Origin: Candidatus Methanoxibalbensis ujae
GTDB lineage: Archaea > Halobacteriota > Syntropharchaeia > Alkanophagales > Methanospirareceae
NCBI GenBank assembly: GCA_026134085.1
Contig: JAOQIN010000001.1
Coordinates: forward strand, 21,344-85,343
Direction: 5' to 3'
DNA: 64,000 bases
Shown piece by piece: positions 13,243 to 56,508 of the stretch (the first letter of the stretch is position 1; each line of letters opens with the position of its first letter). The notes below the pieces were generated by a model. The model saw only the letters and a program-made list of their open reading frames with translations. It was not told the DNA's origin and did not search any database. Position numbers and translations under genes: made by a program.

Positions 13243-13321
13243 CAGCATTTTCCATTCCATTCCATCTTATCCCATCCCATCACTCATTCGCACTCATTCG
13301 CTGATCAATTCGCTGAGCACA

Positions 13322-30255: not shown

Positions 30256-30420
30256 GCTCTTCTCCATTTTCTTCTTTCTTTTTTGTTTCTTTTTGTTTTG
30301 TTTTGTTTTGTTTTTTCTTTTTTTTTTTGTTCTGTTCTGTTTCTTTGTCTTGTTTTATTTCGTCCTGTCCTGTTTCGTTTTGATTCGGTGAATTTGATTC
30401 GGTGAATAATTCAGTAAAAT
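30256..30420. repeat. Microsatellite region ((TTTTG)n, (GTTCT)n, (GTCCT)n, gattcggtgaat x2) in a convergent intergenic region
   Basis: Repeats are visible. The region probably also serves as a bidirectional oligo-T termination region. Confidence 0.65.
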
Positions 30421-30472
30421 TCAAACGGCAAATCAGCATGAGCACCCCGCCTACAGAATTGGAAGAACAGCG

Positions 30473-31561
30473 TTAATGGGAAAAAATTTCTTTTAAAGCA
30501 GCGACAAGCTTTTTATTCTCACCCCTTCTCCCGACAGTTATCCTTATGAAGTTTCCGTTCAATCCCAATAAACCGGTTATACTCCTCGCAATTATCCCCC
30601 TTCTGTATAAAGATTCCGTCAGTTTATCATCAGGAATTTCAAACTTTGCGAGAATAAAATTTGCAGAAGAGGGAAATGGTTTCATACCCTCTATCTTTTT
30701 CAGAGACTCATATAGATATTCGCGCTCTCTGACAATTTTATCTTTTATTCGCCTGAAGTATTCAACATTTTTTATCGCCTGTATTGCTGCTTTCACTGCG
30801 ATTGAAGAAACTGCGAAAGGTTCCCTTATCTTCTCAAGGAGCGAAGCAATCTGCTGAGATGCGACGGCGTATCCTATGCGCAAGCCAGCGAGTGCGAAGA
30901 ATTTTGAGAATGAGCGCACGACAATCAGATTATCATGCTCAACAGAAAGATTGACAACACTTTCCCCTGAAAATTCAGCGTATGCCTCATCAACAACGAC
31001 AATTGCATTTGTGCACTCAACGATCTTCTCTATCTCAGCGGGATTTATGACCGCGCCAGTTGGATTGTTCGGAGAACAAAGGAAAATGATCTTCGCATTC
31101 CTGCCAGAATCAATGATATCATCTGTGGATGGAACGAAGTTGCGCTCCTCTGCCGATCTGACAAATTTAAGAGAGGCATCATGCATCATCGCATAAAATG
31201 CATACATCGTGTATGTCGGAACTGGTATTACAACAACATCAAAAGGTTCCAACAGATAGCAGATGCGCGAGAAAATCTCATTTGCCCCCCCTCCAACCGT
31301 TATGTTTGCGGAGGGCACATTGATGTATGAGGAAATCTCCGATTTGAGCTCCGTGTATTTTGGATTGGGATAGCGAGATACTTCCTTCGCTTCTGCGCAA
31401 ATCGCGTGCACAACATCCCTGGGAAGCGGATAAGGATTCTCGTTTGAGTTCAGATTCACAATTTTGCGAATTGCAATGCCGTATTTTCTGGACACATCTT
31501 CTGGAAAATCGCCGGCATCATAGGGTTCTATCAGCTCAAATTTGCTGAAATTCACGCGCAT
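30473..31561 (-). CDS. hisC: Histidinol-phosphate aminotransferase
   Basis: It is 362 aa. It has the N-terminal LNSNENPYPLP motif and the class-II aminotransferase PLP-lysine region (SFSKFFALAGLRIGY). Confidence 0.75.
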   Translation of the reverse strand: MRVNFSKFELIEPYDAGDFPEDVSRKYGIAIRKIVNLNSNENPYPLPRDVVHAICAEAKEVSRYPNPKYTELKSEISSYINVPSANITVGGGANEIFSRICYLLEPFDVVVIPVPTYTMYAFYAMMHDASLKFVRSAEERNFVPSTDDIIDSGRNAKIIFLCSPNNPTGAVINPAEIEKIVECTNAIVVVDEAYAEFSGESVVNLSVEHDNLIVVRSFSKFFALAGLRIGYAVASQQIASLLEKIREPFAVSSIAVKAAIQAIKNVEYFRRIKDKIVREREYLYESLKKIEGMKPFPSSANFILAKFEIPDDKLTESLYRRGIIARSITGLLGLNGNFIRITVGRRGENKKLVAALKEIFSH

Positions 31562-36006: not shown

Positions 36007-37371
36007 TCAGGTCATGATGTGCAATGCAGCGAGTATGCAGAAGACACCGAACATGTCGGTGAGGCTGGTGACAAGCGGTATCGTGTCGTTGTCGGGGTCC
36101 AAACCGGCTTTGAATGAGAGAGCGGCGATGTAATAGGTTGCGATATTTATGAATGATACGCATAACAGTCCCGCGATGACAGTGATCATGATCATCTCTC
36201 CGAGAGAGCCGCTTTCAATGCATGCGAACAGCATTGATAGCCACGAGAGCGCGCCTACCAGGACGAAGAAGGAAGACAGCCCATATATCAAAGTGAAATC
36301 AGCAATGCTGCGCCTATCGGGAAGAAATCCAGGCTTTATCATGCCCACGTGCAGCATTGACGATATGCGTGCGCTCAGTATGCCGCCGAGCGCACCGCTC
36401 ACACCGAGAAAGGGAGGAATAACTGCAAGAACAGAGGGGTTTGAGATGAGATACTCCAATCTTGATTCAAGAAGTGTTCCCGTAAGCAGGCCTATTATCC
36501 CGCATATAAGTAGCACGGGATAACTTTCTCCAATTATACGACTTATTTCGGTGCGGAGCCCTTTGTATGTGAGTATGAGTGAAAGTGTTACAGAGAGTGC
36601 GGAGATGATCATGGCAATTGTTTCTCTGCTCTCAAGATGCAGTAAGATGTGCGCTGCGAGATATAATGAGGGTATTGTCGTCATATCTCCTGCGGAGGTG
36701 ATGAGCGGTGATGAGAAATTATCTATGTCCAATTTGCGCCGATATGCAAATATTGAGATTGCAACAGTTATTCCGAGAAGGAAAATTCCAGATAAAATGC
36801 CGCCTAACACAGAAATAAATATGAAAAGCCATACAGAAATGCTCTGAATGCCAAATATACCGGCGAAAATCTTCGCAATAATTCCCAAAATAACGGAGAA
36901 TGAAAGTGTCAATGTGATTGTTGACTTTATGTTGTTGTATAAAACATTATCCCTGAGGGAGGGAGTGAAAATACCGAGATGCATGGAGGTTCCAAGCCGG
37001 GATGCCATCGCTCCATACACATTGCCGCGCATATCGTTGGCAGGAGGGATCAGTATGAGCAATCCCGGCATCAATTTGAGCATTTCGGACATTGAGCTGA
37101 AAACAGTGCCTGCAATAATTCCTGATAGCGTGCAGAGAGAAAGAGATAATGAAGATTGAATGAAAATTTGAGCATTATCATGAAAATATGAACGAATATG
37201 ATGAGTCAGGAGGAGCAGAGCACGCATGCATGCTGATATCTCCGACAATATGCCGGTGATGATGTGTTGGATGCGCTGGAATGCGGTGTGTGTTGTATCT
37301 TCGGAGCAGTGTTCTTCTTTCACATCTCCCTCCTCTTTCATTTTCATCACCACCGAGACACACGACAGCAA
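36007..37371 (-). CDS. Polytopic membrane protein, MgtE-like divalent cation transporter TM domain (tandem), tentative
   Basis: It has about 10 TM helices. The acidic motifs PPANDMRGN and DPDNDTIPLVTSLTDMFG resemble MgtE/SLC41 transmembrane signatures. Confidence 0.35.
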   Translation of the reverse strand: MLSCVSVVMKMKEEGDVKEEHCSEDTTHTAFQRIQHIITGILSEISACMRALLLLTHHIRSYFHDNAQIFIQSSLSLSLCTLSGIIAGTVFSSMSEMLKLMPGLLILIPPANDMRGNVYGAMASRLGTSMHLGIFTPSLRDNVLYNNIKSTITLTLSFSVILGIIAKIFAGIFGIQSISVWLFIFISVLGGILSGIFLLGITVAISIFAYRRKLDIDNFSSPLITSAGDMTTIPSLYLAAHILLHLESRETIAMIISALSVTLSLILTYKGLRTEISRIIGESYPVLLICGIIGLLTGTLLESRLEYLISNPSVLAVIPPFLGVSGALGGILSARISSMLHVGMIKPGFLPDRRSIADFTLIYGLSSFFVLVGALSWLSMLFACIESGSLGEMIMITVIAGLLCVSFINIATYYIAALSFKAGLDPDNDTIPLVTSLTDMFGVFCILAALHIMT

Positions 37372-38230
37372 CGGCTCTCAGCAGCACTGCAGTGATTGTG
37401 CAAAGCGGAGTTTCAGGATCGCCTCCCACATCACTTTCTACCGCGGACATCTCACACTATCTGCTGCTTATTACAACCTCCTCCTGTTCCGATCAGAAGG
37501 ACGGCCCCCATCAACCCCTCTCAGTCGGGAACCTTCAAACCCTCTCCATTTAAAACTTACCACGTAAACCACGTAACGCCTCCTCACAAAGACATGAATC
37601 GCACCAGCCCCTTCTCCACCTTCACACAATCTTCCCCGCACCTAAGCGATGCAGACTTTATACAATGTTTATCAGGTCTTGCACATCTTTAAGAAACAAG
37701 CCAGCTCAGGATCCTGTCTCTCTGAAGCTGCAAATAGGTGACATTTTCCGCCATTGCACAATGGCAACAGCAATTCGAGCTATCACAGGCTTTTTTACTT
37801 TCAAACTTAAGATTGTGAATTGATCCATGTTTGCTATCCCCGCCATGTGAACTCCGCCTCCTTCACCTCTGAGTTGAAGAGCTTTCTGAAAGGGCGACAT
37901 CGCCGAGAGATTCCGCATACGGGGCATACGGAGCAGGGTGGAGCGAACTGCGTGAAGAGGTGAAAGCAAGCTTCCTCTTTCGTTTCAGAGTCAAGACTTG
38001 TCTTTCAGTAATGAACAGCTGATTTGCCAACTTTTAAGAGTAAAGCGATTCTTCCGAGATGAGAGGAGATACATTGCCGCAACTTATGGACACTTTTTTC
38101 CTCTCAATGCATTCAGTAACTCAAGCAATCCATTTCGCCATAGATAGTTGTTCAATTATTTATGTTGCTTGATGCTCGGACACATCGGATATGCCAGAGT
38201 ATATTTATATGAGAAGGAAAATTAAAGAGA

Positions 38231-38581
38231 TTGGAGGGTCAGCGGGCAATGTATGCGTTGACGGGAGATGTGCTTTTTGCGTCATTCCGTAGAGGTCTCA
38301 GGAACGGAAATTGGAAGAAGCTGAAAGCGAGTGAGAGGGCTTTTTTCAAGGCAGCGCTTTTCTATCTGAGGCGAGGCGGAAGGATTGTGAGCGTGTCTGT
38401 TTTGGAGAAGCTCCGTTTGCTCATAGAGGAATTGAATGAGACTAGAAGAATGAGGATATTTAGAAAGGGATTCGAGAAAGCGATTGAAATTTTGAACGCG
38501 TGCGAAAATTTTGCATGGTATCCTTATTTAAAGAAATGGCTAAAAGAACCTGATTATATATTCTGGCTCGGAACAATATAG
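38231..38581 (+). CDS. Hypothetical small basic protein
   Basis: It is 116 aa with no recognisable motif. It lies at the left edge of the island. Confidence 0.3.
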   Translation: MEGQRAMYALTGDVLFASFRRGLRNGNWKKLKASERAFFKAALFYLRRGGRIVSVSVLEKLRLLIEELNETRRMRIFRKGFEKAIEILNACENFAWYPYLKKWLKEPDYIFWLGTI

Positions 38582-38739
38582 AAAATTATACTCACGTGCC
38601 AAAAATCTGAGTAAGAGAGTCCGCTTGATGGGAGGTGAGAAGCATACAAAATGAGTACGCAATGCAGATATTGGGAGGATATACGCAATGCGTATATGAA
38701 CGAGTTATCTGCCATTCCACTCAATGGAGTTGTTAGCCT

Positions 38740-40068
38740 ATGGAACAAATTTTCATAGCTTGGGGACGTAATAAAAACTTGGCCATTAAAGTGGCAGAGA
38801 AATTGAAAGAAAAGGGGTATAATCCCATTGTAGGTGGTGATGAAAAGAACCCGAAGGAGAAAGATTATTACTTAGGCAAAGAAGTTCTTAACCAAATTAA
38901 AAAGGCATCTAAGGCTATTATTCTTGCTCAACAATTAAGACCTAACCTAATGTTCGAATTTGGAATATTATTTGAAAGACTAAACCCTGCATCAATCTTT
39001 ATTTTTTTAATTGGAATTAAAAGAAGTAAATTTTTTACAGAAGCTTCAGACCTCGCTGGCATTAGATGTTTTGAAGTCCCTACTGATAAAAAAGATATAG
39101 AGGAAAGAGCAAACTTTATTGTTGAGAAATTTGTTGAAAATTTAGTTCCTACAATTATTGATCCCGAAAGTTTATTTATCAAGTGGGATGACTGGAAAAA
39201 TAAATTTAATTCTATTAAAAAAGGTGAAGTAAAAGAAAGTCAAGTAGTTTTGAATCAAGTAATTTTACACAGTCTTCAACCAGCCTACTATTTTGGCGAA
39301 ATAAATTTTTTAAAAGATTTTGTGTCTAAATTAGAATTGGATTCATCTTTAAAAACAATCATACAATCAGCATGTGAATATTATATGCTAACTGAATTAC
39401 CAGATTCAAGGCCTGAATTGGGCGAATTGCTCCCGTTAAAAGAGAGTTTGAACAATCCTATATCTATCAAATCGACAATTAAAAACTGGGTAGAACTTGT
39501 AAGAAATGACTTCCTTGGTTTGGTTTATCGTAGAATGTCAGAATCTTTGAAAGAGCAAAAAATAAATTATCTCGAAAAATCTAAGAAAGCTTTTGAGAAT
39601 TCAATAAGATATCTTGAAAAAATCCCAGAAAAGAGAGCATGTTGGCATTTATGGAAAGGATATATTTATAGAAACCTTGGAAGAACATATTGTGAACTCA
39701 ACAATCGTGAGAAAGGTCTGGAATTTCTTAAGGAATCCCAAAAACATAGAAGAGAAGCTTATTCAGCGTTTAAAGCATTAAATGTTTCAGACATTGTCTT
39801 AAATCAGATATTTTTGGAGATCAAAATAGTGGATTTAGATATTATGAGATATAGCACTGAAGAATTAGAATCGAAAAAGCAAAAATTGACAGAAATTATA
39901 GAAGCATTAAAAGTCCAGGGAAAACTCATAGTGAGACCTCTAATTTTATGGAATAAAGTAATAGTTTTGGCTAAAGATGTGGCTGAGAGAGAAGCTAACT
40001 TGCAAGGTATATATAGAGACTTAGAGCAAATTGAAAATCACATAAGAAAGTTGAAAGGAGGCTCTTGA
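38740..40068 (+). CDS. Protein with N-terminal TIR/DUF4062-like flavodoxin-fold domain and C-terminal alpha-helical (TPR-like) domain
   Basis: The N-terminus has the pattern IFIAWG...LA..VAEKLKEKGY.....GG......VL..IKKASKAIILAQ...NLMFEFGILFERL. That is a beta-strand/helix alternation like TIR-family domains (VFISY...IVVLS..SxWCxxEL). The rest is helical with W/Y-rich repeats. It is my assignment from pattern only. Confidence 0.35.
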   Translation: MEQIFIAWGRNKNLAIKVAEKLKEKGYNPIVGGDEKNPKEKDYYLGKEVLNQIKKASKAIILAQQLRPNLMFEFGILFERLNPASIFIFLIGIKRSKFFTEASDLAGIRCFEVPTDKKDIEERANFIVEKFVENLVPTIIDPESLFIKWDDWKNKFNSIKKGEVKESQVVLNQVILHSLQPAYYFGEINFLKDFVSKLELDSSLKTIIQSACEYYMLTELPDSRPELGELLPLKESLNNPISIKSTIKNWVELVRNDFLGLVYRRMSESLKEQKINYLEKSKKAFENSIRYLEKIPEKRACWHLWKGYIYRNLGRTYCELNNREKGLEFLKESQKHRREAYSAFKALNVSDIVLNQIFLEIKIVDLDIMRYSTEELESKKQKLTEIIEALKVQGKLIVRPLILWNKVIVLAKDVAEREANLQGIYRDLEQIENHIRKLKGGS

Positions 40069-40727
40069 TGCCAAAAGTTAAAAGAATTAATTTTAACAAA
40101 CAGAATATCAAAGCTATAGCTTTGGACTTTGATGGAGTAATTGTTGACTCACAGGATTTACACCTCAAAGCTTGGATAGAGACTTTGAAAAAATACCGTA
40201 ATAATTTTAAAGTAAGTTTAAGAGACATTACTGGACTATCAGTGTCAGAATTTATTCAAAGACTGAATATTCCACCAGAAGAGGGAGTAAAAATGGCGGA
40301 ATCGAAAAGAAAATATGTTGTTCAACTTGCCAGAATACATCCTCCACCGTTGTATACAAATGTTATCGAAACTTTACAAATCCTATCTAACTATTATAAA
40401 CTTGCGCTTGTAACCTCATGTGAAACAGACTTAGTCTATTTTGTGTTGGAGTACTATAATTTGAAAAAATTGTTTGAGGTTCTCATCCTTGAGGGTGATT
40501 ATAATAAGCCCAAACCAGATCCGGAACCTTACTTAGAGTGTCTGAAAAGACTGGGACTAGATGCAAAATCTGTGATTGCTATAGAGGACTCTCCAACTGG
40601 AATAAAGTCAGCCAAAAAGGCAGGTCTATTTACAATAGCTATCTCTACTACATTTAATAAAACTCAGCTATTTGAGGCTGATATTATTATAACTAATTTT
40701 AAAGAGTTATTATGTTTAATCCCATAA
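40065..40727 (+). CDS. HAD-superfamily phosphatase (beta-PGM/CbbY-like subfamily IA)
   Basis: It has DFDGVIVDS (motif I, DxD), a T/S in motif II, and K...EDSPTGIKSAKKAG (motifs III/IV). Its start overlaps the upstream gene stop (ATGA). Confidence 0.7.
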   Translation: MMPKVKRINFNKQNIKAIALDFDGVIVDSQDLHLKAWIETLKKYRNNFKVSLRDITGLSVSEFIQRLNIPPEEGVKMAESKRKYVVQLARIHPPPLYTNVIETLQILSNYYKLALVTSCETDLVYFVLEYYNLKKLFEVLILEGDYNKPKPDPEPYLECLKRLGLDAKSVIAIEDSPTGIKSAKKAGLFTIAISTTFNKTQLFEADIIITNFKELLCLIP

Positions 40728-40860
40728 GGCATGGAACATCCCATAAGGCATGGAACGGCAGATAACAGCGGGTATGTGGTTCGCTTACGCTCACCCAAAC
40801 CCTTACTGGCTTCGCATACCCGCAAAACGTTAGGCGAAATGCCTTGATGGGGAGAATCTA
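40728..40860. repeat. Island repeat element copy A (contains internal direct repeat atcccataaggcatggaac x2; ends ...ctggcttcgcatacccgcaaaacGTTAGGCgaaatgcc)
   Basis: It is homologous to copies B-D and ends in a GTTRRRY-type motif about 26 nt before the next ATG. Confidence 0.55.
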
Positions 40861-41490
40861 ATGAAATCTTTTGTAGTTGAGCTGTGGTCGGGGATATTCA
40901 GCATACTGAGATGGATATCGCCTTTTCAGGTGATCCGTACTTTGATTCCAGCCATCAGAGGAAGTCATGGCTTTGTTGATGGATGGGTTTTAGGAAATTT
41001 ACTACTTTCAATTGTACTATTATTGATGTGTTCAGCTCCGAGTCTACATTGGTGGGAGGTTATCGCTATTTGTTATGGGATAATTCGAGTTTTCGAAGTC
41101 TTTATCTACCAAATTAACGTGCTGTTATTTGATGAGTATAGGGCAAGAAAGGCAGGAAAAGCTTATGCTCTACGAGGCTTTCGCCGCCTTGTGATCCTTC
41201 TGCTACATAATTATGCCGAGATTATTTTTTGGTTTGCTCTTTTTTATCGTAACTTAGACTGGGCGTTTGAGACGGGCAAAATCAACCTCAATTCATTTTC
41301 TGTATCTTTAAACTTTAGTTTTGTTACAATGACTACTTTTGGCTATTCTACTATCTTTCCCAAGGAAACTTTAGGGTACATTCTCACTCTTACTCAGTCA
41401 ATAATTGGTTTATTCATGGCGTTGTTGATTCTCGCAAGATTTATATCTTTAATCCCTGCCCCTCAAACCATGGATGAATTTGAGAAATGA
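40861..41490 (+). CDS. Two-TM ion-channel-like protein (K+ channel pore-like TTFGYS filter)
   Basis: The hydrophobic helices flank a pore-helix/filter-like segment VTMTTFGYSTIFP (compare T-[TV]-GYG). Confidence 0.45.
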   Translation: MKSFVVELWSGIFSILRWISPFQVIRTLIPAIRGSHGFVDGWVLGNLLLSIVLLLMCSAPSLHWWEVIAICYGIIRVFEVFIYQINVLLFDEYRARKAGKAYALRGFRRLVILLLHNYAEIIFWFALFYRNLDWAFETGKINLNSFSVSLNFSFVTMTTFGYSTIFPKETLGYILTLTQSIIGLFMALLILARFISLIPAPQTMDEFEK

Positions 41491-41606
41491 TTATTATTTC
41501 GTCTAACAGTATCTGGCTTCGGTGCTTCGCACCTCCGCCCAAATTCCTCGCTCGGAACTTCGGATATGCCCAGAACGTTAAGTGAAATTCGGCTCATGCG
41601 TTAAGA
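41491..41606. repeat. Island repeat element copy B (starts cgTCTAACag...; ...ctggcttcggtgcttcgc...ccgcccaaattcc...aacttcggatatgcccagaacGTTAAGTgaaattcgg)
   Basis: It is homologous to A, C and D. It has a 5' RYYYAAC-like motif and a 3' GTTRRRY-like motif. Confidence 0.55.
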
Positions 41607-41646
41607 ATAAAATATAACTATAATAATAATTAAATAATGATATAGT

Positions 41647-41871
41647 ATGCTCGTAACATTTGAGATATACAATGATGGTGAATACTGGTGTGCAAGAGGT
41701 ATAGGAGTGGATATATTCACACAAGGAAAAACACTTGATGAGTTGATGGAGAATATAAAAGAGGCTGTTGAAGTACATTATGGAGAATTATTGGAAAAAG
41801 GTGAAGATATAAGGATATTATCAATATCAGAAATAGAGGTGCATTCAACTGCCAAAGTTACCAGTCGTTAG
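41647..41871 (+). CDS. hicB: HicB-like antitoxin (UPF0150 family N-terminal domain)
   Basis: The segment FEIYNDGEYWCARGIGVDIFTQGKTLDELMENIKEAVEVHY matches the HicB/UPF0150 pattern (Y.a..pdlpG..s.G.T.eEa..n..EAi). Confidence 0.5.
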   Translation: MLVTFEIYNDGEYWCARGIGVDIFTQGKTLDELMENIKEAVEVHYGELLEKGEDIRILSISEIEVHSTAKVTSR

Positions 41872-41893
41872 TGGGGATAAACTAATCAAACTA

Positions 41894-42097
41894 TTGACCA
41901 GATTGGGATACGAAATAGTAAGACAGAAAGGGAGCCACGTGCGTTTAAGAAAGAAAACAGAAATAGGTGAGCATAATATAACTGTGCCCAAACACAAAGA
42001 AATTGCAAAAGGTACACTAAATGATATTCTATCAAAGGTGTCTCTATGGAACAACATATCCAAAGAGGAATTAGTCAAAATGTTATCAAAAATATGA
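41894..42097 (+). CDS. hicA: HicA-like mRNA interferase toxin (YcfA family)
   Basis: It has GSHVRLRK...HNITVPKHKEIAKGTLNDIL (the HicA GSH..L and TVP.H.EI..GTL motifs). The frame is open upstream (LPKLPVVSGDKLIKLL), so the true start may be a non-ATG codon near 41850 that overlaps the hicB end. Confidence 0.55.
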   Translation: MTRLGYEIVRQKGSHVRLRKKTEIGEHNITVPKHKEIAKGTLNDILSKVSLWNNISKEELVKMLSKI

Positions 42098-42099
42098 GA

Positions 42100-42270
42100 G
42101 GTGGATATATGACGCATGAGCTCTCGTAACCCTTCGGTTTCACCCCTCTCGGGGCCACTTAACAGGAGGATATGTGGCTTTTACAGAGCCTAAATTTGCT
42201 CTTGCAAGCAAACTTCACATATCCCCGGTTGTCCGAAATCCCGAACGCCGCTCTTAAGAGGTGAAATAAC
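42100..42270. repeat. Island repeat element copy C (contains aacaggaggatatgtggctt and ccaaatttgc...caaacttcacatatc)
   Basis: It is about 90 nt and homologous to copy D. Confidence 0.55.
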
Positions 42271-42501
42271 ATGAATGATAAAATTGCACCAAATATAATA
42301 GATAATAGCCCAAATAGAGAGTTAATCAGAGTATTGAAAGATCAATTAAAAAAATCAAAAGAGGCTAAATTTGCCATAGGATATTTCTTCCTGAGTGGAT
42401 TTTCTCTTGTTAAAGATGACTTTCCAGAAAATTATGAAAAGATACCATTTCTTAAAATTGTGATGGGAAATGAAACTACATATCCAACAAAAGAGGGGTG
42501 A
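42271..42501 (+). pseudogene. Fragment resembling the N-terminus of PLD-like/helicase-associated proteins
   Basis: It is 76 aa and ends abruptly. The motif AKFAIGYFFLSGFSLV resembles the I.I.sgYf..SG PLD-like N-terminal motif. Tentative. Confidence 0.25.
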
Positions 42502-43208
42502 GATGCTTGATTTTAAGGAAATAGAATCTGATTTGTTTACTGAGGTGGAGGAAGTTGAGAAGTTTATCTTTAACAATATTTCCCTGCGAGCATGGATTGA
42601 GGAAGGAAGGATTGAAAGACAGGAGAGATGGGAATATCCACCAAAGGCATTGAGAGAGGCTATAGTAAATGCAATTGTCCACAGGGATTATCGTATTCCC
42701 TCTAAGATACAGATAAGAATATTTGATGATAGAATCGAATTATAGAATCGAATTCTGGAATCTAGGAAGATTACCAGAAGGTTGGACTGTTGAAACCTTA
42801 AAAGAAGAGCATACATCGGAACCATTTAATCCACTGATTGCGAGAATTTTCTTCGGGGTAGGATATGTGGAAGAGGTTGGAACTGGAACGAATAAAATGA
42901 TAAGGTGGTGTAAAGAATGGGGTCTTCCAGAACCTGAATTTAAAATAAAATCAAACAACATAGTGGTTATATTTAGAAAATCAAAACTTACTGAGGAATA
43001 TCTAAACAATCTTGATCTTACAGAAAGAGAAAAGGAAATAATTCAATTTCTCAAAGAGAAAAAGAGGATCACCAGTGCTGATGTCCAGAAAAAGTATGAA
43101 GTAAGTAGAGATACAGCAAATAGATGGTTGAATAAGCTGCTTGGATTAAACCTAATAGAAAGAAAAGGGAGAGGGAAAGCAGTGTATTACATTTTAAAGG
43201 AAAAATGA
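42470..43208 (+). pseudogene. AlbA_2/HATPase_c_4-family regulator (RecG-C-terminal-like ATP-binding protein) disrupted by a 13-bp tandem duplication frameshift; N-terminally truncated
   Basis: Two overlapping ORFs (42470..42745 and 42723..43208) carry PPKALREAIVNAIVHRDY and ...IEFWNLGRLPEGWTVETLKEEHTSEPFNPLIARIFF...GTGTNKM...GLPEPEF. The DNA at about 42730-42755 reads atagaatcgaatt-atagaatcgaatt. Removing one copy restores the single frame RIEFWNLG. Confidence 0.55.
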
Positions 43209-43438
43209 TGCGTCAGATTTGCGTCAGATAACTACGACCGCTGGGCTGAGCTTTACTGGAAGAAGCAAATTGAAGGAAATTTAACAGAAGGAGAGCAAAA
43301 GGAACTTGAAAAACTGGAAAAAGAGAATATGAAAACCATAGAAGAAGTTTATAAATTACTCATAGAAGATAAAAAAATACAAAAACAAATAGAAAAAATA
43401 AAATCCCATGAATGGGTTAAAGTAATAGAGGGGGAAGG

Positions 43439-43759
43439 ATGAACGAAAAGGTAAAGAGGATATTAACAGAGGTCAAAAAGTATTTGATTAAGAACTATGG
43501 AGACAGGATAAGGCAGGTTATCCTTTATGGCTCTTATGCACGGGGAGATTACAATAAAGATTCCGATATTGATATATTGATTGTGGTGAGCGATGATATA
43601 AACCCTATTGAGGTTGAAGAATCCTTAAACGATTTACTTTTTGAAATCCTTCTTAATGAAAATGAACTTTGCTCAGTCAGGGCGATACCAGAAAAATTGT
43701 TTAAGGAATACAATTCTCCATTCCTTTTGAATGTAAAAGAAGAAGGTGTGATGATATGA
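43439..43759 (+). CDS. Minimal nucleotidyltransferase (MNT) antitoxin
   Basis: It has the GSYARGDYNKDSDIDILIV NTase motif and is 106 aa. Its stop overlaps the next ATG (ATGA). Confidence 0.7.
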   Translation: MNEKVKRILTEVKKYLIKNYGDRIRQVILYGSYARGDYNKDSDIDILIVVSDDINPIEVEESLNDLLFEILLNENELCSVRAIPEKLFKEYNSPFLLNVKEEGVMI

Positions 43760-44137
43760 AAAAAGAAATAAAAGACCTTCTTGAGAAAGCTGATAGATAC
43801 TTAAGAAGTGCAGAACTATTATTAAAAGATGGCGACTTCGATTCCTGTGCATCAAGATGTTACTATGCCATGTTTTACTCAGCAGAAGCTATATTGCTTA
43901 CAAACGATTTGAAGGCATCTTCTCATGAGTAATAAGTTTATTCGGCATTTTATCAAAACAGGGAAATTGGATAAAGAATTGGGGAAGGCATTGAGAAGAG
44001 CATATGACTTAAGACAGAGGGGAGATTATGAAACCGGTTTTATGGTAACAGAGGAAGAGGCGAGAAAACTCCTGGAAATAGCAAAGAACTTTGTAAAAGT
44101 AGTCTTAGATTATTTGAGTGAGCGAACTGACTCATAG
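43756..44137 (+). pseudogene. HEPN toxin gene split by a +1 frameshift (cognate of the MNT)
   Basis: The N-terminal half 43756..43932 reads MKKEIKDLLEKADRYLRSAELLLKDGDFDSCASRCYYAMFYSAEAILLTNDLKASSHE*. The C-terminal half 43925..44137 in another frame reads ...FIKTGKLDKELGKALRRAYDLRQRGDYE. Together they reconstruct a canonical HEPN with its R-x4-6-Y motif. Confidence 0.55.
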
Positions 44138-44139
44138 TA

Positions 44140-44310
44140 ATAGAGTAGAGGGAGGAATATGAGCGGGGTTCGGGACTCTCCGCTTCCTTCGCTCGCTTCG
44201 GTGCTTTTGCACTCGGACAACAGGAGGATATGTGGCTTCGCCTTGCTCTGCCCAAATTTGCCTACGGCAAACTTCACATATCAAACGTTAGGCGACATGC
44301 AGAAATAGAA
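44140..44310. repeat. Island repeat element copy D (aacaggaggatatgtggcttcgcc...cccaaatttgcc...caaacttcacatatcaaacGTTAGGCgacatgc)
   Basis: It is homologous to A, B and C and ends in GTTAGGC. Confidence 0.55.
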
Positions 44311-44349
44311 AAGTAATTCAAAAAAAGAAATTAAAAAGTATACGATAAC

Positions 44350-44480
44350 AGATAAAAAATTGTACTTTATGGCACATATGCGAGAGGAGATGCCACAAAA
44401 GACTCAGACATAGATTTACTCATCGTTCCTGAAGGAGAAGTGATCTCAGGAGAAGAGACTGACACCGGGAGAAGAGATTG
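44350..44480 (+). pseudogene. Degenerate nucleotidyltransferase (MNT) remnant
   Basis: One frame reads ...IVLYGTYARGDATKDSDIDLLIVPEGEV... with no proper start and a stop. It is the remnant of a further cassette. Confidence 0.4.
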
Positions 44481-44671
44481 ACATGATGATGGACATAGTC
44501 ACAGAGATGAACCTATATGGTGTGTTACTGTTTATCCGAATCCAGCAAAGGAGAAAAGGATGTTATGAAATTGTTATGAAATATTGCAGTATAGCTCAAT
44601 AAATTCCCGAACGGATGCCTGAAGCAGGATTATTTGCACGGGCACTTTGCCTTTTGGGAAAGGAAATATGT

Positions 44672-47600
44672 TTATTCTCTCAAAATTTCCTCATATTTCT
44701 TCTTCCAAGCCTCCACTTCCTCTTTCGTCACGACATCTATGGAACCGCCCTGAAATTCGCCTTCAACGACTCCTATTTTTTCCTCCATCCACCCCTCAAC
44801 CTCCAGAAGCGCCGCCCTCAAGCCATCAATAACATCTTCAGATGCTTTCCACAGCCCTCTTTCATATGCCTCAATCAACCTTCTGCCGATCTCTTCAAGA
44901 GCCCAGGGATTTTCACCCTCAAAAAACTTTCGCATATTCTTATCAAGAACGAAAGTGCGGGCGATTTCATCAAAGATCCAATCACTCACTTCCTCTGTTG
45001 ATGCTTCCCATCCGTAAACTCTGCCTATTCTTTTTGATATTTCGCTTGCTCCGCTGTATCCGTGCTTTTTCATACCCTCTATCCATTTGGGATTCAGCAG
45101 TTTTGCGCGCACCACTCTCCTTATCTCCGAAGCAAGTGTTCTGACCTCAACATTATCAGAGCGCGTGTCTCCGTAGAGGGCGATCACATCTTTTCCCGAA
45201 ATCTCGCGAGCAGCAGCTGTGAGACCACCATGTGTGCTGAAGTAGCAGCAGCATCCGAGAATGTCGTATTCGTCTGTTGTTGTCTTGTTGAATGTTACAG
45301 AAACCGTTTTTAGCTGCGATAAGAGAGATTTGTGAGCTTTTATACCGAATTTCCTGTCACCGTAAGCGTAGCCGTTCCAGTATATGAATATCTCTGTAAG
45401 GTCCTTCTGCGTGTTCCATGCAGATGCATATACAGCGAGATTCACACCGCTGCCATATGTTCCTGGTTTTGATGAGAATATGCGTGCATGAGTGTCTTCA
45501 CATTTGTTTTCGTTCTCAATTGCGTGTTTTCTCAGGAAATTAAGCGAAGTTGGTTCGTCAAGAGATGAAACCTCCCTGAATGCGCGGTCGAGGAGCTCAA
45601 TGCAGTTGTAGAAGCAGTCTCTTATGATTGCGCTCACACGCACAGTCACATCTATGCGCGGTCTTCCAAGAGTTTCAGCGGGAATTATCCTGAAATCAAC
45701 CACACGACCGTCAGCATCCCAGACAGGTTCAACACCTATGAGATACATTATCTGAGCGAGCTGCTCTCCATCAGCCCACATTATATCTGATGCCATCCAG
45801 TACATGGCCACATTCTCCGGAAATTCCCCCTTTTCCTCCTCATATCTGCGCAACATCGCATCAGCAAGCTTCTTGCCGACTTCCCATGCGGCCTTTGTGG
45901 GTATTTTGAACGGGTCAAGCGAGTAGAAATTGCGACCTGTCGGCAGGATATCTGTTTTTCCTTTTGTTATAAGGCCTGAGGCACCCGGCTCTATGTATCC
46001 CGCATCAAATCCGTGCATAAGAGCACCCATTTCGTCTGTCGCATCCAATCTCGCTGCTATCTCCCTCACAGCATCTCTCAGCTCGGAGAACTCCGCTTCC
46101 ATGCTCTTTGCCGCGATTTTGAGAGCCTCATCCTCATGCTCCTCGCAGTCCTCGCAGGAGCGCAACGCAGCGGTGTCACCATCATCGCTCAAAAATCCGT
46201 GCAGGATTTTTCTTGCTGTGCTGTCAATGAACGCGTTGCTGTCACGATGCTCCTCTGACGCCTGCGCATTCATTTTTGCATTTGCCTTCACATTTACACG
46301 CTGAAGAAGTTTGCGCACGGCTTCTCTGAATTTCTGTCGCAGTACGGCGTATATGAAGTTCTCTTTCTGCGCTCCTTCAGGAGTCTCGCCGAACACATGC
46401 ATGCCTTCAGGAATCTGCGAGTCGTATATCTGAGACAAAGCCTCATGAACAGCATTCAGAAAATCATTGAAATCCTCATATACACGGATTTCATCGTATA
46501 TGCGGGTATTGCGGATCATATCCATGATCTGATTTCGCAGCGCATGAGCTCTCTCGGTGTTCTTTTGATTTTGAATTCTGCGATATTCATCTATTAAATC
46601 ATCAAGCGCTTTGAGATCCCCATACAAGCCGCTTTCAGTGAGAACAGCCTGAAGATGGTCTATGAGTGTTGCATAGCTGCGTCTCTTTGCTATTGTGCCT
46701 TCGGGAGGGTTGTCCGCGTTGTAGATGTAGAGATGAGGGACATCACCTATTGCGATATCGGGAAAACAGCACTCTGATAGGCCCACAGATTTTCCGGGAA
46801 GAAATTCAAGATTTCCATGCGTGCCAACATGCACAATCACATCAGCGCCGAATATGCGATCAATGTAATGATAGGTGGCGAGATACTGATGCGTCGGTGG
46901 TGTTTCCGGGTCATGAAGGATTTTGCACACATGCCCATCGCATCTCGCACCGGCACATCCTCTCTTTGGCTGCACGCACACGATTGCATTTCCATATCTG
47001 ATGCCTGTTATCACTATTTTTCCGTCATACACCATGGCATTACCCGGCGGCCTTCCCCAGACATCGCATACTTTCTTCCGCACCTCTTCATCCAAACTGT
47101 TGAACCAGCGCTCATATTCCTCACCGCTCAGATACAGTGCGCCTCCTTTTGCAACAATCTCATCCACAGTTGTCCATCTGAACTCTGATATTGCTTTTCT
47201 CCGCATTATCTCATCAATCAACGCCTTTCCATCCTCAGGCGGTTCTTCAATCGCATAACCCTCATCACGCAATCTTTTGAGAATGCGAGATACGCTCTCA
47301 AGCGCGTCCAGATGAGATGCGCTTCCCACAGTCGCCTCAACAGATGCACATGGCTTGTTATGCAGTATGAACGCAACCTTTCGCTCTGATTTGGGCTTCA
47401 TGCGAAGCGCTATCCACTTATTCACTCGCCGCACAACCTTCCTCACACGCTCCTCCAGAGGCACATGCTCAGTTGCTGCTGTCGCCGACTGTGCGGACGA
47501 TGAAGCTTTCACACCTGCGACGAGAGGCTCTATAAGACCTTCAAACTCCGGCATAGCGACACTCCATCCGACCTCGGCAGCGCTGAGACCGTGAGAATCG

Positions 47601-48445
47601 CCACGCCAATCACTCTCAGTTTTGTGATAAAGGATCAGCGGATGAAACACGGGCACATCAACCTTCTTCAGAGTGCTCACTCCATTTTCGGATGCAGCAA
47701 AAACAGGCTGTAAATTCACGATCGCATCAACATGGCCCATGAAAAACTCTCTTATGACATCCACACCCGTCTTCGCACCAGCATCTCTGTCTCCCATTCC
47801 CATGCTGAACACAGGAATCACACCGGTTCCGCTGCGCTCAAACTCGCGTATCAGTGCATCAACCACAGAAAGATCTCCGTTCAACCAGTATGTGCGATAG
47901 AAAAGTATGCCAACCATCGGACGACGATCATGACTCCCGAAATGCTGAAGATCATACCACTTCAGATAAGAAGCAACATCATCAAACACGCACTCCGCAT
48001 CTGGATGATAAATGCCCTGCCACGGATATTCCTTTGGAGGCTCGTACGGGACTTCAGCGCCTGTAAGCGTGTGCATTATGAACTTCAGCATGTTGACAAC
48101 ATTCTCATAGCCGCCGTATGTGAAATACGCGTTCGCCCTCAAAACAACTTCAGGCGGAACATTTGAGAGAGACATGTCCAAATTGTATCCAAGCGATATC
48201 ACAGGCTTATCTTTCCTCGGAAAATCACCCATCCATTCATGCTCACTCATCCATTCATGCGAGGGATGCAATATGATTATGTCGGCATCCTCAAGCGATT
48301 TCAGACATTCATCACGCCTCCCGGCATCCTTCAGATCATCATGCGTCCATAAAAGCAGATCAATCCCCAGATCCTCACATGCCCTCCTGAGAAGTCCCAC
48401 ATCACTGCTCCACACAACAGATCCTATCTTAACCATGACGCACAC
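44672..48445 (-). CDS. cobN: CobN/Mg-chelatase-family large subunit (cobaltochelatase CobN-like)
   Basis: It is 1257 aa with CobN-family length and motifs throughout. The identification rests on overall pattern. Confidence 0.7.
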   Translation of the reverse strand: MCVMVKIGSVVWSSDVGLLRRACEDLGIDLLLWTHDDLKDAGRRDECLKSLEDADIIILHPSHEWMSEHEWMGDFPRKDKPVISLGYNLDMSLSNVPPEVVLRANAYFTYGGYENVVNMLKFIMHTLTGAEVPYEPPKEYPWQGIYHPDAECVFDDVASYLKWYDLQHFGSHDRRPMVGILFYRTYWLNGDLSVVDALIREFERSGTGVIPVFSMGMGDRDAGAKTGVDVIREFFMGHVDAIVNLQPVFAASENGVSTLKKVDVPVFHPLILYHKTESDWRGDSHGLSAAEVGWSVAMPEFEGLIEPLVAGVKASSSAQSATAATEHVPLEERVRKVVRRVNKWIALRMKPKSERKVAFILHNKPCASVEATVGSASHLDALESVSRILKRLRDEGYAIEEPPEDGKALIDEIMRRKAISEFRWTTVDEIVAKGGALYLSGEEYERWFNSLDEEVRKKVCDVWGRPPGNAMVYDGKIVITGIRYGNAIVCVQPKRGCAGARCDGHVCKILHDPETPPTHQYLATYHYIDRIFGADVIVHVGTHGNLEFLPGKSVGLSECCFPDIAIGDVPHLYIYNADNPPEGTIAKRRSYATLIDHLQAVLTESGLYGDLKALDDLIDEYRRIQNQKNTERAHALRNQIMDMIRNTRIYDEIRVYEDFNDFLNAVHEALSQIYDSQIPEGMHVFGETPEGAQKENFIYAVLRQKFREAVRKLLQRVNVKANAKMNAQASEEHRDSNAFIDSTARKILHGFLSDDGDTAALRSCEDCEEHEDEALKIAAKSMEAEFSELRDAVREIAARLDATDEMGALMHGFDAGYIEPGASGLITKGKTDILPTGRNFYSLDPFKIPTKAAWEVGKKLADAMLRRYEEEKGEFPENVAMYWMASDIMWADGEQLAQIMYLIGVEPVWDADGRVVDFRIIPAETLGRPRIDVTVRVSAIIRDCFYNCIELLDRAFREVSSLDEPTSLNFLRKHAIENENKCEDTHARIFSSKPGTYGSGVNLAVYASAWNTQKDLTEIFIYWNGYAYGDRKFGIKAHKSLLSQLKTVSVTFNKTTTDEYDILGCCCYFSTHGGLTAAAREISGKDVIALYGDTRSDNVEVRTLASEIRRVVRAKLLNPKWIEGMKKHGYSGASEISKRIGRVYGWEASTEEVSDWIFDEIARTFVLDKNMRKFFEGENPWALEEIGRRLIEAYERGLWKASEDVIDGLRAALLEVEGWMEEKIGVVEGEFQGGSIDVVTKEEVEAWKKKYEEILRE

Positions 48446-56419: not shown

Positions 56420-56508
56420 TGCGCCGGCCGGGACTCGAACCCGGGTTAGAGGCTTTTTGCCCCGCAGAGGATGGCAAGCCTCTGTGATAACCACTACACT
56501 ACCGGCGC
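56420..56508 (-). tRNA. tRNA gene with anticodon-loop intron, probably tRNA-Gly(GCC)
   Basis: The reverse complement reads GCGCCGG-TA-GTG-AGTGGTTAT-CAC-A-GAGGC-TTGCCA-[intron ~17 nt TCCTCTGCGGGGCAAAA]-A-GCCTC-TAAC-CCGGG-TTCGAGT-CCCGG-CCGGCGC-A. The acceptor and T arms are perfect. Its 88-nt length implies an intron at the canonical 37/38 position. Confidence 0.6.

Follow-up and report, generated by a model that had tools for sequence, protein, structure and literature searches.

Integron-type arrays of gene cassettes have been described in both Bacteria and Archaea. Archaeal integrons and CALINs, arrays without a local integrase, were reported by Ghaly et al. (2022, Sci Adv; PMC9668308), ANME-1 metagenome-assembled genomes (MAGs) among their hosts. 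In these arrays co-oriented short ORFs lie between attC hairpins, mostly without an integrase, and the cargo is rich in toxin-antitoxin (TA) and restriction or defence genes. The sedentary chromosomal integrons of Vibrio (VCR arrays; bioRxiv 10.1101/2024.07.02.601686; PMC13108822) have family-specific homologous attC sites and interspersed TA cassettes, carry defence systems as cassettes ('biobanks') and turn over most at the array head.

The window, the whole 64-kb stretch of DNA that was analysed, very probably contains a CALIN of this type in the slot between the MgtE and cobN genes of the 'Ca. Methanoxibalbensis ujae' chromosome. The host is a thermophilic methane-oxidising archaeon of ANME-1c; proteins of the window are matched exactly on a 145.5-kb MAG contig of this species. 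Unlike the Vibrio arrays, the window array has only 4-5 sites, lacks intI and an attI/Pc platform, resides in an archaeal host and, across the alleles of its slot, includes multi-gene cassettes of up to 7.6 kb. The published archaeal IntIs bear the IntI-specific domain (PMC9668308). Unlike the published archaeal CALINs, the window array has archaeal core genes on both sides within a contig of 145 kb, and its turnover is documented by three alleles of one locus. The experimentally tested Halobacteriota attC (PMC9668308) is of the compact, canonical 58-nt type, whereas the window sites belong to a longer family (about 94 nt) in which the R boxes are extended and two inner hairpins are conserved. 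This distinct, widespread attC family appears to be new, as does the turnover of cassettes between ANME-1c genomes.

The foreign segment and its recombination sites

The part of the window between 38.7 and 44.7 kb is foreign DNA. In 1-kb steps its GC content is 0.30-0.37 across 39-44 kb, against about 0.46 elsewhere. The island ORFs downstream of 38705 all have a GC of 0.29-0.38 and a GC3 of 0.21-0.38, ranges that lie below the minima of 40 core ORFs (0.409 and 0.385; means 0.469 and 0.491). ORF116, immediately before the first site, is core-like in both values, and the foreign segment is therefore placed at about 38705 to 44671. ORF116 matches no family in Pfam, NCBIfam or PADLOC, has 97% nucleotide identity to its counterpart in the ANME-1c contig L209, is also present in a second such contig, L208, and falls in a 90% cluster of 47 members; the alternatives for it are a resident platform gene and an old 'cassette 0'. 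The MgtE gene (98% nucleotide identity to L208) probably starts near 37092, as called in L208. An earlier note had described the stretch as AT-rich, with all genes on one strand between an MgtE-like gene and cobN, and as a horizontally acquired, cassette-structured and partly decaying defence/addiction array. Composition, strand (plus throughout), Pfam matches to both flanks, the cargo and several remnants bear this out.

Features of the MgtE-cobN locus in window coordinates (R1, model built from two of the four elements s1-s4; R2, model from metagenome copies only)
Feature	Position	Strand	Remarks
MgtE-family divalent cation transporter, left core flank	36007..37371	-	Pfam MgtE E=1.7e-32
ORF116, hypothetical protein directly 5' of first site	38231..38581	+	GC 0.436, GC3 0.496
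s0, short hairpin site	38661..38718	+	crossover 38704|38705; R' GTTATCT
Cassette 1, TIR-TPR-like protein + HAD phosphatase + attC s1	38705..40829	+
TIR-TPR-like gene	38740-40068	+	CAP12-PCTIR_TIR E=3.9e-8
HAD gene	40065-40727	+	HAD_2 E=4e-33
attC s1	40755..40843	+	R1 E=3e-7, R2 E=9.5e-14; R'' AAC at 40764-40766; R' GTTAGGC, G at 40829
Cassette 2, two-TM ion-channel protein (40861-41490) + attC s2	40830..41577	+	Pfam Ion_trans_2
attC s2	41496..41591	+	R1 E=8e-4, R2 E=4.4e-10; R'' GTCTAAC, C at 41507; R' GTTAAGT, G at 41577
Cassette 3, HicB antitoxin + HicA toxin + attC s3	41578..42228	+
HicB	41647-41871	+	HicB_lk_antitox E=1.8e-5
HicA	41894-42097	+	HicA_toxin E=1e-13
attC s3	42152..42242	+	R2 E=3.4e-13; R'' ACTTAAC, C at 42163; R' GTTGTCC, G at 42228; fold z=-3.3
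Cassette 4, composite of gene remnants + attC s4	42229..44287	+
HKD+Snf2, N-terminal 76 codons	42271-42501	+	truncated near 42497
AlbA_2/HATPase_c_4-wHTH fragments	42470-43208	+	HATPase_c_4 E=2e-17
Methyltransferase-like remnant	43209-43439	+
MNT	43439-43759	+	NTP_transf_2 E=1e-12
HEPN, frameshifted, two frames	43756-43932 and 43925-44137	+
attC s4, last site of the array	44210..44301	+	R2 E=5.5e-18; R'' GGACAAC, C at 44221; R' GTTAGGC, G at 44287
Terminal cassette remnant, frameshifted MNT pseudogene	44288..44671	+	without own attC; abuts cobN stop codon
cobN cobaltochelatase, right core flank	44672..48445	-	Pfam CobN-Mg_chel, 1289 bits

Each unit of the array consists of a single gene or small operon that lacks a promoter and, behind it, an imperfect palindrome of about 90 nt, in which R'' (ending in AAC) and L'' are followed by variable loops, L' and R' (beginning with GTT). 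Each cassette carries its own attC, and the boundaries between cassettes fall at G|TT in R'. The earlier note had recognised four homologous intergenic elements; the homology is real, the supposed length of 100-150 nt is not (measured, 89-96 nt), and their identity as attC-type recombination sites, assigned here with R1, R2 and folding, is absent from that note. R1 recovers the two elements that it was not built from (E=3e-7 and 8e-4), with no further match in the 64 kb. R2 recovers all four (E=5e-18 to 4e-10) and has no match in 1.28 Mb of unrelated control loci. Folded as single-stranded DNA, all four sites have their more stable structure on the bottom strand (in s1, -15.7 kcal/mol, against -11.2 kcal/mol on the top strand). 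The R' of s3 departs from GTTRRRY.

The site s0 resembles an attC without inner loops, and its R'' is degenerate (ATT, not AAC). It folds at -10 kcal/mol (z=-4.15), is weakly matched by R1 (E=0.17) and, being atypical, is not matched by R2. It bounds the most variable slot on the left and may have an attI-like role.

The same attC family is found on at least 120 metagenome contigs, and its sites are co-oriented in every one of about 40 contigs that have several. In an alignment of 104 sites, which was fitted to the structure of the model and so favours it, 95.8% of cells are paired (14-48% in slid controls), 14 of the 18 pairs have compensatory changes, and AAC and GTT are nearly invariant. 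An A/G difference that recurs among the sites results in G.T on the bottom strand; on the top strand it results in C.A. In the consensus the L box forms one uninterrupted helix of 8 bp, and it is the spacers that are asymmetric (5 nt and 7 nt). Canonical attC sites have a pattern of extrahelical bases; the helix of the L box is unbroken in the present family.

Recombinases beside related arrays

The window has 56 ORFs of 150 aa or more; among 40 of them, spread over its length and including all ORFs between 30.5 and 53 kb, Pfam detects no recombinase. When IntI1 and three cognate recombinases are compared with all 64 kb by tblastn, the best match has E>2. The array is therefore of the CALIN type, and its enzyme would act in trans, since 37 kb of upstream and 19 kb of downstream sequence encode none. 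By the mechanism proposed, the bottom strand of attC would fold as single-stranded DNA, and a tyrosine recombinase supplied in trans would cut it at AA|C and join it to the target site. Circular cassettes would be inserted preferentially at the head of the array, and recombination between two attC sites would excise them.

Arrays of the window family adjoin Xer/XerA-like recombinases without the IntI-specific domain at seven loci (L107, L153, L110, L202, L203, L205 and L206/207), four of which were selected solely on the length of the contig; this association also appears to be new. At all seven the sites lie immediately upstream of the recombinase gene, on the divergent strand, and the 10-kb downstream flanks contain no site of the family. 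The enzymes, of 269-278 aa, are from CPR bacteria and a DPANN-like archaeon. Over their whole length they can be aligned with XerA of Archaea (4a8e, 5hxy) and, by NCBIfam and PDB alignments, lack the insertion of IntI (I2 domain), which likens them to the enzymes of XerA/XerCD dimer resolution. The pdif modules of Acinetobacter plasmids are gene modules bounded by Xer-type sites and found in varied contexts; the XerC/XerD sites that bound them are 28 bp long and alternate in orientation. The cassettes are likewise discrete gene modules in different contexts, but the sites of the window family are long structured hairpins in a single orientation, each belonging to its upstream gene. Xer-exploiting elements (IMEX), of which CTX-phi is one, are discussed in PMC4792948; that a folded single-stranded hairpin is usable by a Xer enzyme is shown by CTX-phi. 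IMEX elements integrate singly at the chromosomal dif site (PMC4792948), unlike the tandem, co-oriented hairpins of about 90 nt that recombine at G|TT beside a recombinase gene.

It is possible, if somewhat doubtful, that the array is an ordinary CALIN left or serviced by an I2-bearing IntI encoded elsewhere, and that the short Xer-like genes are housekeeping dimer resolvases near which arrays simply tend to be located. An ANME-1 MAG with seven attCs and one IntI is known, and several archaeal attCs are recombined by IntI1 (Ghaly et al. 2022, PMC9668308); recombinases near attC without intI_Cterm are not IntI according to Cury et al. (2016). The Xer-like family is also very large (at least 7,926 members), its members are labelled XerD by the sources, and FtsK is encoded two genes away in L202; they may serve CPR and DPANN genomes as their housekeeping dimer resolvase. 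Against this reading, the sites lie directly upstream of the short recombinase at 7/7 loci with a visible upstream flank, in unrelated contexts (rplS, lepA, rpoC, pol III, Mbh hydrogenase), and the downstream flanks are free of them. In addition, tblastn of IntI1 over 80 attC-bearing contigs found the short type only, and the tested Halobacteriota attC is of a different, compact type. As the Xer-like family is so large and possibly housekeeping, its role in cassette recombination is read from position alone; on that ground the enzyme serving the window array is most likely of the 269-278-aa Xer/XerA-like type.

Crossover footprint and cassette turnover

After a crossover at G|TT, the start of a cassette should be the reverse complement of R'' of its own attC, at the other end of the cassette. 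The start of cassette 1, TTATCTGCCATTCCA, matches at 15 of 16 positions and that of cassette 2 at 11 of 12. Cassette 3 begins with TTAAGTG, the reverse complement of its own R'' CACTTAA (an 8-nt run), and cassette 4 with TTGTCCGA, that of its own R'' TCGGACAA (a 9-nt run); pairs within the same site have a complementarity of only 0-4 nt. The 53 cassettes studied in 44 other arrays have an own-pair score of 6.1/9, where two controls have 4.3/9 and 4.45/9 (p=1e-14 and 2e-8), and each of three alleles of one slot obeys the rule. This complementarity is the footprint of integron-style recombination.

The cassettes at the head of the array differ between genomes. The comparison with relatives proposed in the earlier note shows different contents in the same MgtE/cobN slot: in L208 and L209 the TIR-HAD cassette is replaced by a type I restriction-modification (R-M) system, which is 7.6 kb long in L208, or by a nucleotide-metabolism module. 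The three sequences are identical as far as G|TTA at s0 and diverge beyond it, the homology of L208 and L209 to the window being broken at the crossover points (38707 and 42222). The slot directly after s0 thus holds three different cassettes in three ANME-1c genomes, and the downstream cassettes (channel, HicBA) are unmoved, a likeness to the turnover at the head of Vibrio arrays. In the second genome the flanks enclose a different gene set. Another array, L095, has a copy of cassette 2 (84% nucleotide identity) followed by a different cassette, and the similarity stops at 41579, at most 2 nt from the crossover. The same cassettes thus recur in other arrays beside different neighbours.

It is very improbable that the segment is a generic genomic or defence island which arose by another route, with elements that are REP/MITE-like repeats, sites of RNA processing or terminators. 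Like terminators, the elements form palindromes at the 3' ends of genes, and AT-richness and variability are common in defence islands. A role in RNA or termination, however, gives no reason why cassette starts should complement their own downstream R'' or why homology between genomes should break at G|TT. The stems are not followed by T-tracts, a terminator scan is below chance, no Rfam family matches, and neither flanking direct repeats nor a border tRNA was found. A bacterial (for example, CPR) array misjoined to an archaeal contig in assembly or binning is hardly credible, for while the GC of the cassettes is nearer to that of the CPR loci L107 and L153 (0.32-0.35) than to that of the host and MAGs under the labels Desulfofervidus and Armatimonadota also have cassette proteins, a single contig (~145 kb) joins the array to archaeal core genes on either side, the junctions are found again in independent assemblies (L208, with 95-98% in each flank and 98.5% amino acid identity in CobN; L209, which ends in the C-terminus of cobN), and cassette 1 is reproduced exactly by an independent Logan read assembly (contig L001, 100% identical, with breaks within both flanking sites).

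Cargo and decay of the cassettes

The CALIN carries TA pairs (HicAB, MNT/HEPN) together with genes that are known for defence or resemble such genes (TIR-TPR+HAD; type I R-M in the sister genome), a cargo that points to a changing stock of genes for defence and addiction. Pfam confirms the gene identities given in the earlier note, with the domains TIR, HAD, Ion_trans_2, HicB, HicA, HATPase_c_4 with wHTH, and MNT. The TIR domain of cassette 1 is of the CAP12/Pycsar type, and its gene overlaps the HAD gene by ATGA. The hope of an undescribed system at this locus holds for the TIR-TPR/HAD cassette, which belongs to no known defence family; it does not hold for the kind of array, since CALINs of Archaea, ANME-1 included, have been on record since 2022. 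Cassettes 1 and 4, like the R-M cassette of L208, are far above the typical size of integron cassettes.

The array is partly decayed by deletion and frameshift, as seen in the truncated HKD-Snf2 gene, the frameshifted HEPN and the MNT remnant. What the earlier note called a PLD-like fragment matches positions 3-62 of a 948-aa HKD+Snf2 model of PADLOC. A homologue of 91% nucleotide identity is an open frame of 1229 codons in contig L117, and the similarity stops at 42496. Within the methyltransferase-like remnant, 43242-43419 is 73% identical to methanococcal plasmids. The MNT/HEPN pair and the second MNT, also named earlier, are both present. The two HEPN halves have matches in L082, L090 and L098. 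The terminal MNT remnant (44321-44600), KIVLYGTYARGDATKDSDIDLLIV by six-frame reading, has 72% nucleotide identity to the MNT genes of L090 and L098 and is kept in L208.

Composition and boundaries of the cassette island

The AT-rich segment between the MgtE and cobN genes can with considerable confidence be regarded as an integron-type, integrase-less cassette array of an ANME-1c archaeon, with documented cassette turnover and partial decay. The fall in GC content described in the earlier note is real and amounts to 0.30-0.37 in the 1-kb windows from 39 to 44 kb versus about 0.46 in the remaining window. The ORFs between 38740 and 44137 have a GC content of 0.29-0.38 and a GC3 of 0.21-0.38, all below the minima of 40 core ORFs (0.409 and 0.385, respectively). 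ORF116, directly 5' of the island, is core-like in composition, and archaeal core genes (PAN, FrhB, TiaS and HMG-CoA reductase) are present in the window. The island is indeed flanked by MgtE and cobN, all of its genes are on one strand, as had been claimed, namely the + strand, and the domains proposed from the sequence alone were found by Pfam: CAP12/Pycsar-type TIR, HAD, Ion_trans_2, HicB, HicA, HATPase_c_4 with wHTH, and MNT. The suspected 'PLD-like' fragment exists as a 76-aa ORF, which matches the very N-terminus of a 948-aa HKD+Snf2 model of PADLOC. Its homologue in another contig (L117), 91% identical at the nucleotide level, is an open frame of 1229 codons, and the window copy is therefore a deletion remnant. 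The decay noted earlier extends to a split HEPN gene and a frameshifted MNT remnant, both found by six-frame reading.

The cassettes are bounded by sites that, on direct reading, share their layout with integron attC sites, having an AAC box, an imperfect palindrome and a GTTRRRY-like box, from which the core box of s3 deviates (see Table). Sites s1-s4 are 89-96 nt long, within the attC range of about 57-141 nt, with fold z-scores of -1.5 to -3.3, and each contains the R''/R' and L''/L' inverted repeats of an attC hairpin. In attC sites the bottom strand is selected through extrahelical bases and an unpaired central spacer; in the window's family the spacers are unequal, 5 versus 7 nt, and no base of the consensus L box is bulged out. 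In single-strand DNA folding the bottom strand of each of the four sites is more stable than its top strand; a recurrent A/G difference, which gives a C.A mismatch on the top strand and a G.T wobble on the bottom strand, favours the bottom strand. The sites are co-oriented and, as in attC arrays, less than 4 kb apart, with spacings of 741, 656 and 2058 nt, and they stand at the 3' ends of promoter-less ORFs. The first site, s0, at the head of the array, where a complete integron has its attI insertion site, is atypical, has the appearance of a shortened attC and precedes the most variable slot; no recombinase gene lies beside it. A search for the start of a 'cassette 0', the complement of the s0 R'' box, gave nothing above chance. 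A scan for sigma-70 promoters and terminators was also at chance level and has little meaning in an archaeon.

Coordinates of features in the window and in related loci
Feature	Sequence	Position	Strand	Observation
Mild GC dip	window	13001-14000		GC 0.397
Mild GC dip	window	30001-31000		GC 0.401
MgtE-ORF116 gap	window	37093-38230		1.1 kb, in part C-rich
Frame within the gap	window	37226-37567		113 aa
ORF116	window	38231-38581
Site s0	window	38661-38718
Cassette island	window	about 38705-44671	+
Tandem duplication	window	40719-40756		exact, 19 nt, ATCCCATAAGGCATGGAAC twice
Site s1	window	40755-40843		core box GTTAGGC
Site s2	window	41496-41591		core box GTTAAGT
Site s3	window	42152-42242		core box GTTGTCC
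ORF fragment in cassette 4	window	43242-43419		178 nt
Site s4	window	44210-44301		core box GTTAGGC
tRNA	window	56420-56508	-	89 nt, Rfam 57.8 bits; ARAGORN gives 4-base anticodon 'tgcc'
Counterpart of MgtE-ORF116 gap	L208	787-1284		165-aa ORF without family
Type I R-M cassette	L208	2324-9834		hsdM split into three ORFs
attC of R-M cassette	L208	9892-9983		chimeric appearance
attC compared with it	L209	5409-5502
Array of longer sites	L202	810-9041		sites of about 165 nt, 21-29 bits
Recombinase region	L202	10001-15111		ftsK, recA

The relationship among the sites was examined with two covariance models. The first was built from s3 and s4 only, because MAFFT misaligned s2 and s1. It recovers the full length of s1 (E=3e-7) and s2 (E=8e-4) and, weakly, s0 (E=0.17), and no site beyond s0-s4 in the 64-kb window. 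The second, built from metagenome sites only, recovers all four window sites (E=5e-18 to 4e-10) and none in 1.28 Mb of unrelated archaeal and bacterial loci. A degenerate attC pattern matches three window sites, where none is expected by chance, and at least 120 metagenome contigs; it has no match in viral contigs. On 80 of these metagenome contigs 104, and then 134, sites were located by covariance model, and about 40 of the 80 hold 2-5 sites, which are co-oriented without exception. In the aligned family of 104 sites 95.8% of the cells are paired, against 14-48% in partner-slid controls, and compensatory changes occur in 14 of 18 pairs, figures to be read with the caveat that the alignment was fitted to the structure of the model. 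The AAC/GTT boxes are near-invariant, their pairs being retained in 93-95 of about 98 members. In an array of a CPR genome (L202) the sites are longer and lower-scoring, and may represent a sub-family whose loop region carries an insertion.

No integrase accompanies the array. A Pfam search of 40 of the 56 ORFs of at least 150 aa, with every ORF between 30.5 and 53 kb covered, gave no tyrosine recombinase (Phage_integrase) domain, and tblastn of the whole 64 kb with IntI1, used as a probe only, and three cognate recombinases gave a best match with E>2. The array is therefore a CALIN, i.e. a cluster of two or more attC sites with spacings below 4 kb and no intI in the vicinity; here there are four confident sites and no recombinase in 64 kb. 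A complete integron (intI, attI, Pc and cassettes) differs in its adjacent integrase gene. In Xer/dif modules (pdif, IMEX) the 28-bp dif-like sites consist of two 11-bp arms and a 6-bp spacer, whereas the boundaries of the window array are structured, co-oriented hairpins of about 90 nt with AAC/GTT cores. A tRNA-targeted genomic island does not fit, the only tRNA being 12 kb away and neither an integrase nor a flanking direct repeat having been found.

Crossover points and alternative alleles

Integron recombination takes place at G|TT. The first bases of a cassette thus follow directly on this G, and they complement the R'' box in the attC of the cassette itself. The cassette starts in the window match their own R'' in 15 of 16 positions, 11 of 12 positions, a run of 8 nt and a run of 9 nt, while within one site R'' and R' have no more than the 3-4-nt core in common (0-4 nt). 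Across 53 pairs of consecutive sites from 44 arrays of the family, 6.1 of 9 variable positions obey this rule, compared to 4.3 for pairs from different loci and 4.45 within the same site (Mann-Whitney p=1e-14 and 2e-8). The ends of homology between arrays, at 41579, 38707 and 42222, agree with crossover at G|TT. The ion channel cassette, for example, recurs in another array (L095) with 84% nucleotide identity; the similarity stops at 41579, at most 2 nt from the crossover, beyond which L095 has a different cassette. A Logan contig with a sequence identical to that of cassette 1 breaks off inside both flanking sites.

'Ca. Methanoxibalbensis ujae' is an ANME-1c thermophile of the Pescadero and Guaymas hydrothermal systems. 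A search of genome contigs for related loci with MgtE found no relatives. Two alleles of the locus bear out the suggestion that the island is polymorphic, since its content varies at the shared MgtE/cobN slot. The contig L208 (GCA_053938205.1) has the MgtE...cobN-AP_endonuclease-HMGR synteny of the window at 95-98% nucleotide identity. Its island contains a complete, true type I R-M system of 7.6 kb with embedded MNT/HepT pairs in place of TIR-HAD, and a 347-aa ORF in place of the debris cassette. The R-M operon is a single cassette, in which hsdM, hsdS and hsdR are separated from one another by insertions, a HEPN gene and two MNT/HepT pairs. The second contig, L209 (GCA_030262725.1, JAJSZS010000035.1), carries DUF429, AdSS-like, DCD and dNK genes in the same slot; it has been assigned to a bin of 'Ca. 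Desulfofervidus auxilii'. Its two ends show synteny with the ANME-1c locus, with 97% identity upstream of s0 and the cobN C-terminus at the contig end, and the binning is therefore probably wrong. For the same reason cross-domain sharing with Desulfofervidus as the syntrophic partner was rejected. Its cassettes are 93-97% identical to those of the window; its cobN end is only about 73% identical at the nucleotide and 86% at the amino acid level.

The three alleles are identical in s0 up to G|TTA and diverge thereafter, and the cassette that follows begins in each of them (TTATCTGCC, TTAAGTG and TTATATGAC) with the reverse complement of its own R''. That cassettes have been swapped at the predicted crossover points indicates that integron-style gene capture has been active in ANME-1c populations. 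The genes that it brings, TIR-TPR/HAD, type I R-M and TA pairs, are those of defence and addiction. The attC of the L208 R-M cassette looks chimeric when compared with s1 and its L209 equivalent. In its 5' half (L'' GCGGATAAACG) it matches the allele of L209, in its 3' half (L' CGTATACCCGC) that of the window, and its L box pairs poorly because the halves match different alleles. This pattern suggests recombination or gene conversion inside attC sites. The adjacency of MgtE and cobN is not conserved in 80 distant cobN loci, and hence no 'empty site' can be demonstrated.

Recombinases adjoining arrays of the same attC family

In three metagenome loci (L107, L153 and L110) recombinase genes encoding 269-278 aa divergently adjoin arrays of the window's attC family. 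The proteins pass or approach the XerA-type model NF040815 and align with archaeal XerA end to end. With the integron-integrase model TIGR02249, whose cutoff is 265, they reach only 176-208, the match being broken into two stretches. Around patch III they have 20 residues, against 63 in VchIntIA (2a3v). The missing segment is the IntI-specific additional domain (I2), which defines integron integrases. The family comprises at least 7,926 proteins at E<1e-30, mostly of about 273 aa; the best 120 of them have 263-307 aa, except for one 401-aa protein with an extra Pfam domain. In Patescibacteria its members are named Xer or 'tyrosine recombinase/integron integrase'. The L153 locus is from Ca. Moranbacteria. 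The L110/L206 recombinase adjoins an Mbh hydrogenase, whose closest named relatives are from Aenigmarchaeota and Diapherotrites; an assignment of the L206-type gene to ANME-1c was rejected because this neighbour points to DPANN-like archaea.

Further members of the family were picked solely for the size of their contigs. In all four with a visible upstream flank, attC-family sites lie immediately upstream on the divergent strand, and none were found in the downstream flanks of the same four loci. The linkage between the recombinase and the attC family, for which the evidence is purely positional, is therefore systematic. The array-adjacent enzyme could also be the housekeeping Xer. In the CPR genome L202 its gene lies upstream of ftsK, at a distance of four genes, and near recA, a context that fits chromosome-dimer resolution too.

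The kind of array described here is already known. Ghaly et al. 2022 (PMC9668308) reported integrons and CALINs, mostly the latter, in 75 archaeal MAGs, with TA and restriction genes as cargo. Their data S1 list two ANME-1 assemblies, GCA_013374555.1 with 7 attCs and 1 IntI, and GCA_017883965.1 with 2 attCs. The Halobacteriota attC tested by these authors is a compact, canonical site of 58 nt, unlike the window's family. These first archaeal arrays were mostly on short MAG contigs without archaeal markers; the window array is held in place by core genes on either side, in a methane oxidiser of biogeochemical importance. What appears new is the attC family, its occurrence in ANME-1c as well as in CPR bacteria and a DPANN-like archaeon, and the recombinase without I2 that is its partner. 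Full-text searches of the literature gave no account of integrons in CPR or of integrases without I2 next to arrays, and the ANME-1 genome paper does not mention integrons. According to Cury et al. 2016, recombinases without intI_Cterm near attC are rare, stand beside fewer than 3 sites and 'are not IntI'.

It is possible, with somewhat less than even probability, that the attC family and the adjoining I2-less Xer/XerA-like recombinases form a separate, very widespread integron-like branch, in which an Xer-type enzyme captures and shuffles hairpin-bounded cassettes, and whose range takes in CPR bacteria, DPANN-like archaea and, as integrase-less arrays, ANME-1c. Such a branch would be a surviving 'proto-integron' or a cassette system exploiting the host's Xer. 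Escudero et al. 2016 (PMC4792948) described a 'chicken-egg paradox' of the I2 domain and attC and noted that Xer-family enzymes do not have I2; a separate branch would provide a concrete case for this origin problem. Many arrays scored as CALINs would then have an unrecognised integrase, and the low-GC cassettes of ANME-1c would record cross-domain flow from ultra-small episymbionts to a methanotroph. If the Xer-like enzymes recombine cassettes, integron detection based on intI_Cterm and PF00589 misses a large class of CPR/DPANN elements, and the origin of integrons from Xer becomes directly testable.

Cargo and neighbouring sequences

The TIR protein belongs to no PADLOC or NCBIfam family, and the HAD and channel proteins have no PADLOC match; the window MNT matches the PADLOC candidate PDC-S09. 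A word-based search found only four clusters of TIR protein homologues, while an exhaustive profile search found 297 representatives, mostly of full length. In some of these the C-terminal helical domain sits on other N-termini, as in P0412 and P0459, proteins of 718 and 800 aa with different N-terminal regions. The AlphaFold model (pLDDT 79.8) consists of a TIR domain followed by a TPR-like solenoid; a PDB fold search gave weak TIR and TPR matches only. The TIR and HAD genes are found together on many contigs, and P0147, in a 90% identity cluster of cassette proteins, is a 657-aa TIR-HAD fusion. An ancient TIR-HAD pairing was rejected because the 31% identical homologue P0348 stands alone, with neither a HAD partner nor an attC. 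The TIR-TPR protein, which has an invariant E73, is a candidate sensor-effector defence protein, and the HAD protein its putative phosphatase partner.

In comparisons with plasmid and phage sequences, the island has no phage match and a sole plasmid match, the unassigned ORF fragment in cassette 4. This remnant is 73% identical to small plasmids of Methanocaldococcus jannaschii (NC_001733.1) and Methanothermococcus okinawensis (NC_015632.1), in the latter of which the matching region is annotated as 'DNA methyltransferase'. The tandem duplication near the end of cassette 1 covers the HAD stop codon and enters the extended R'' flank of s1.

Outside the island, two milder dips in GC content occur. 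An Rfam scan of the window identified one tRNA and no other family; the tRNA probably contains an archaeal intron. An exact protein look-up of MgtE from the long TTG start gave no match, probably because this start is wrong. The frame in the MgtE-ORF116 gap is shorter than its L208 counterpart, and comparison of the two suggests that it may have been frameshifted in the window.
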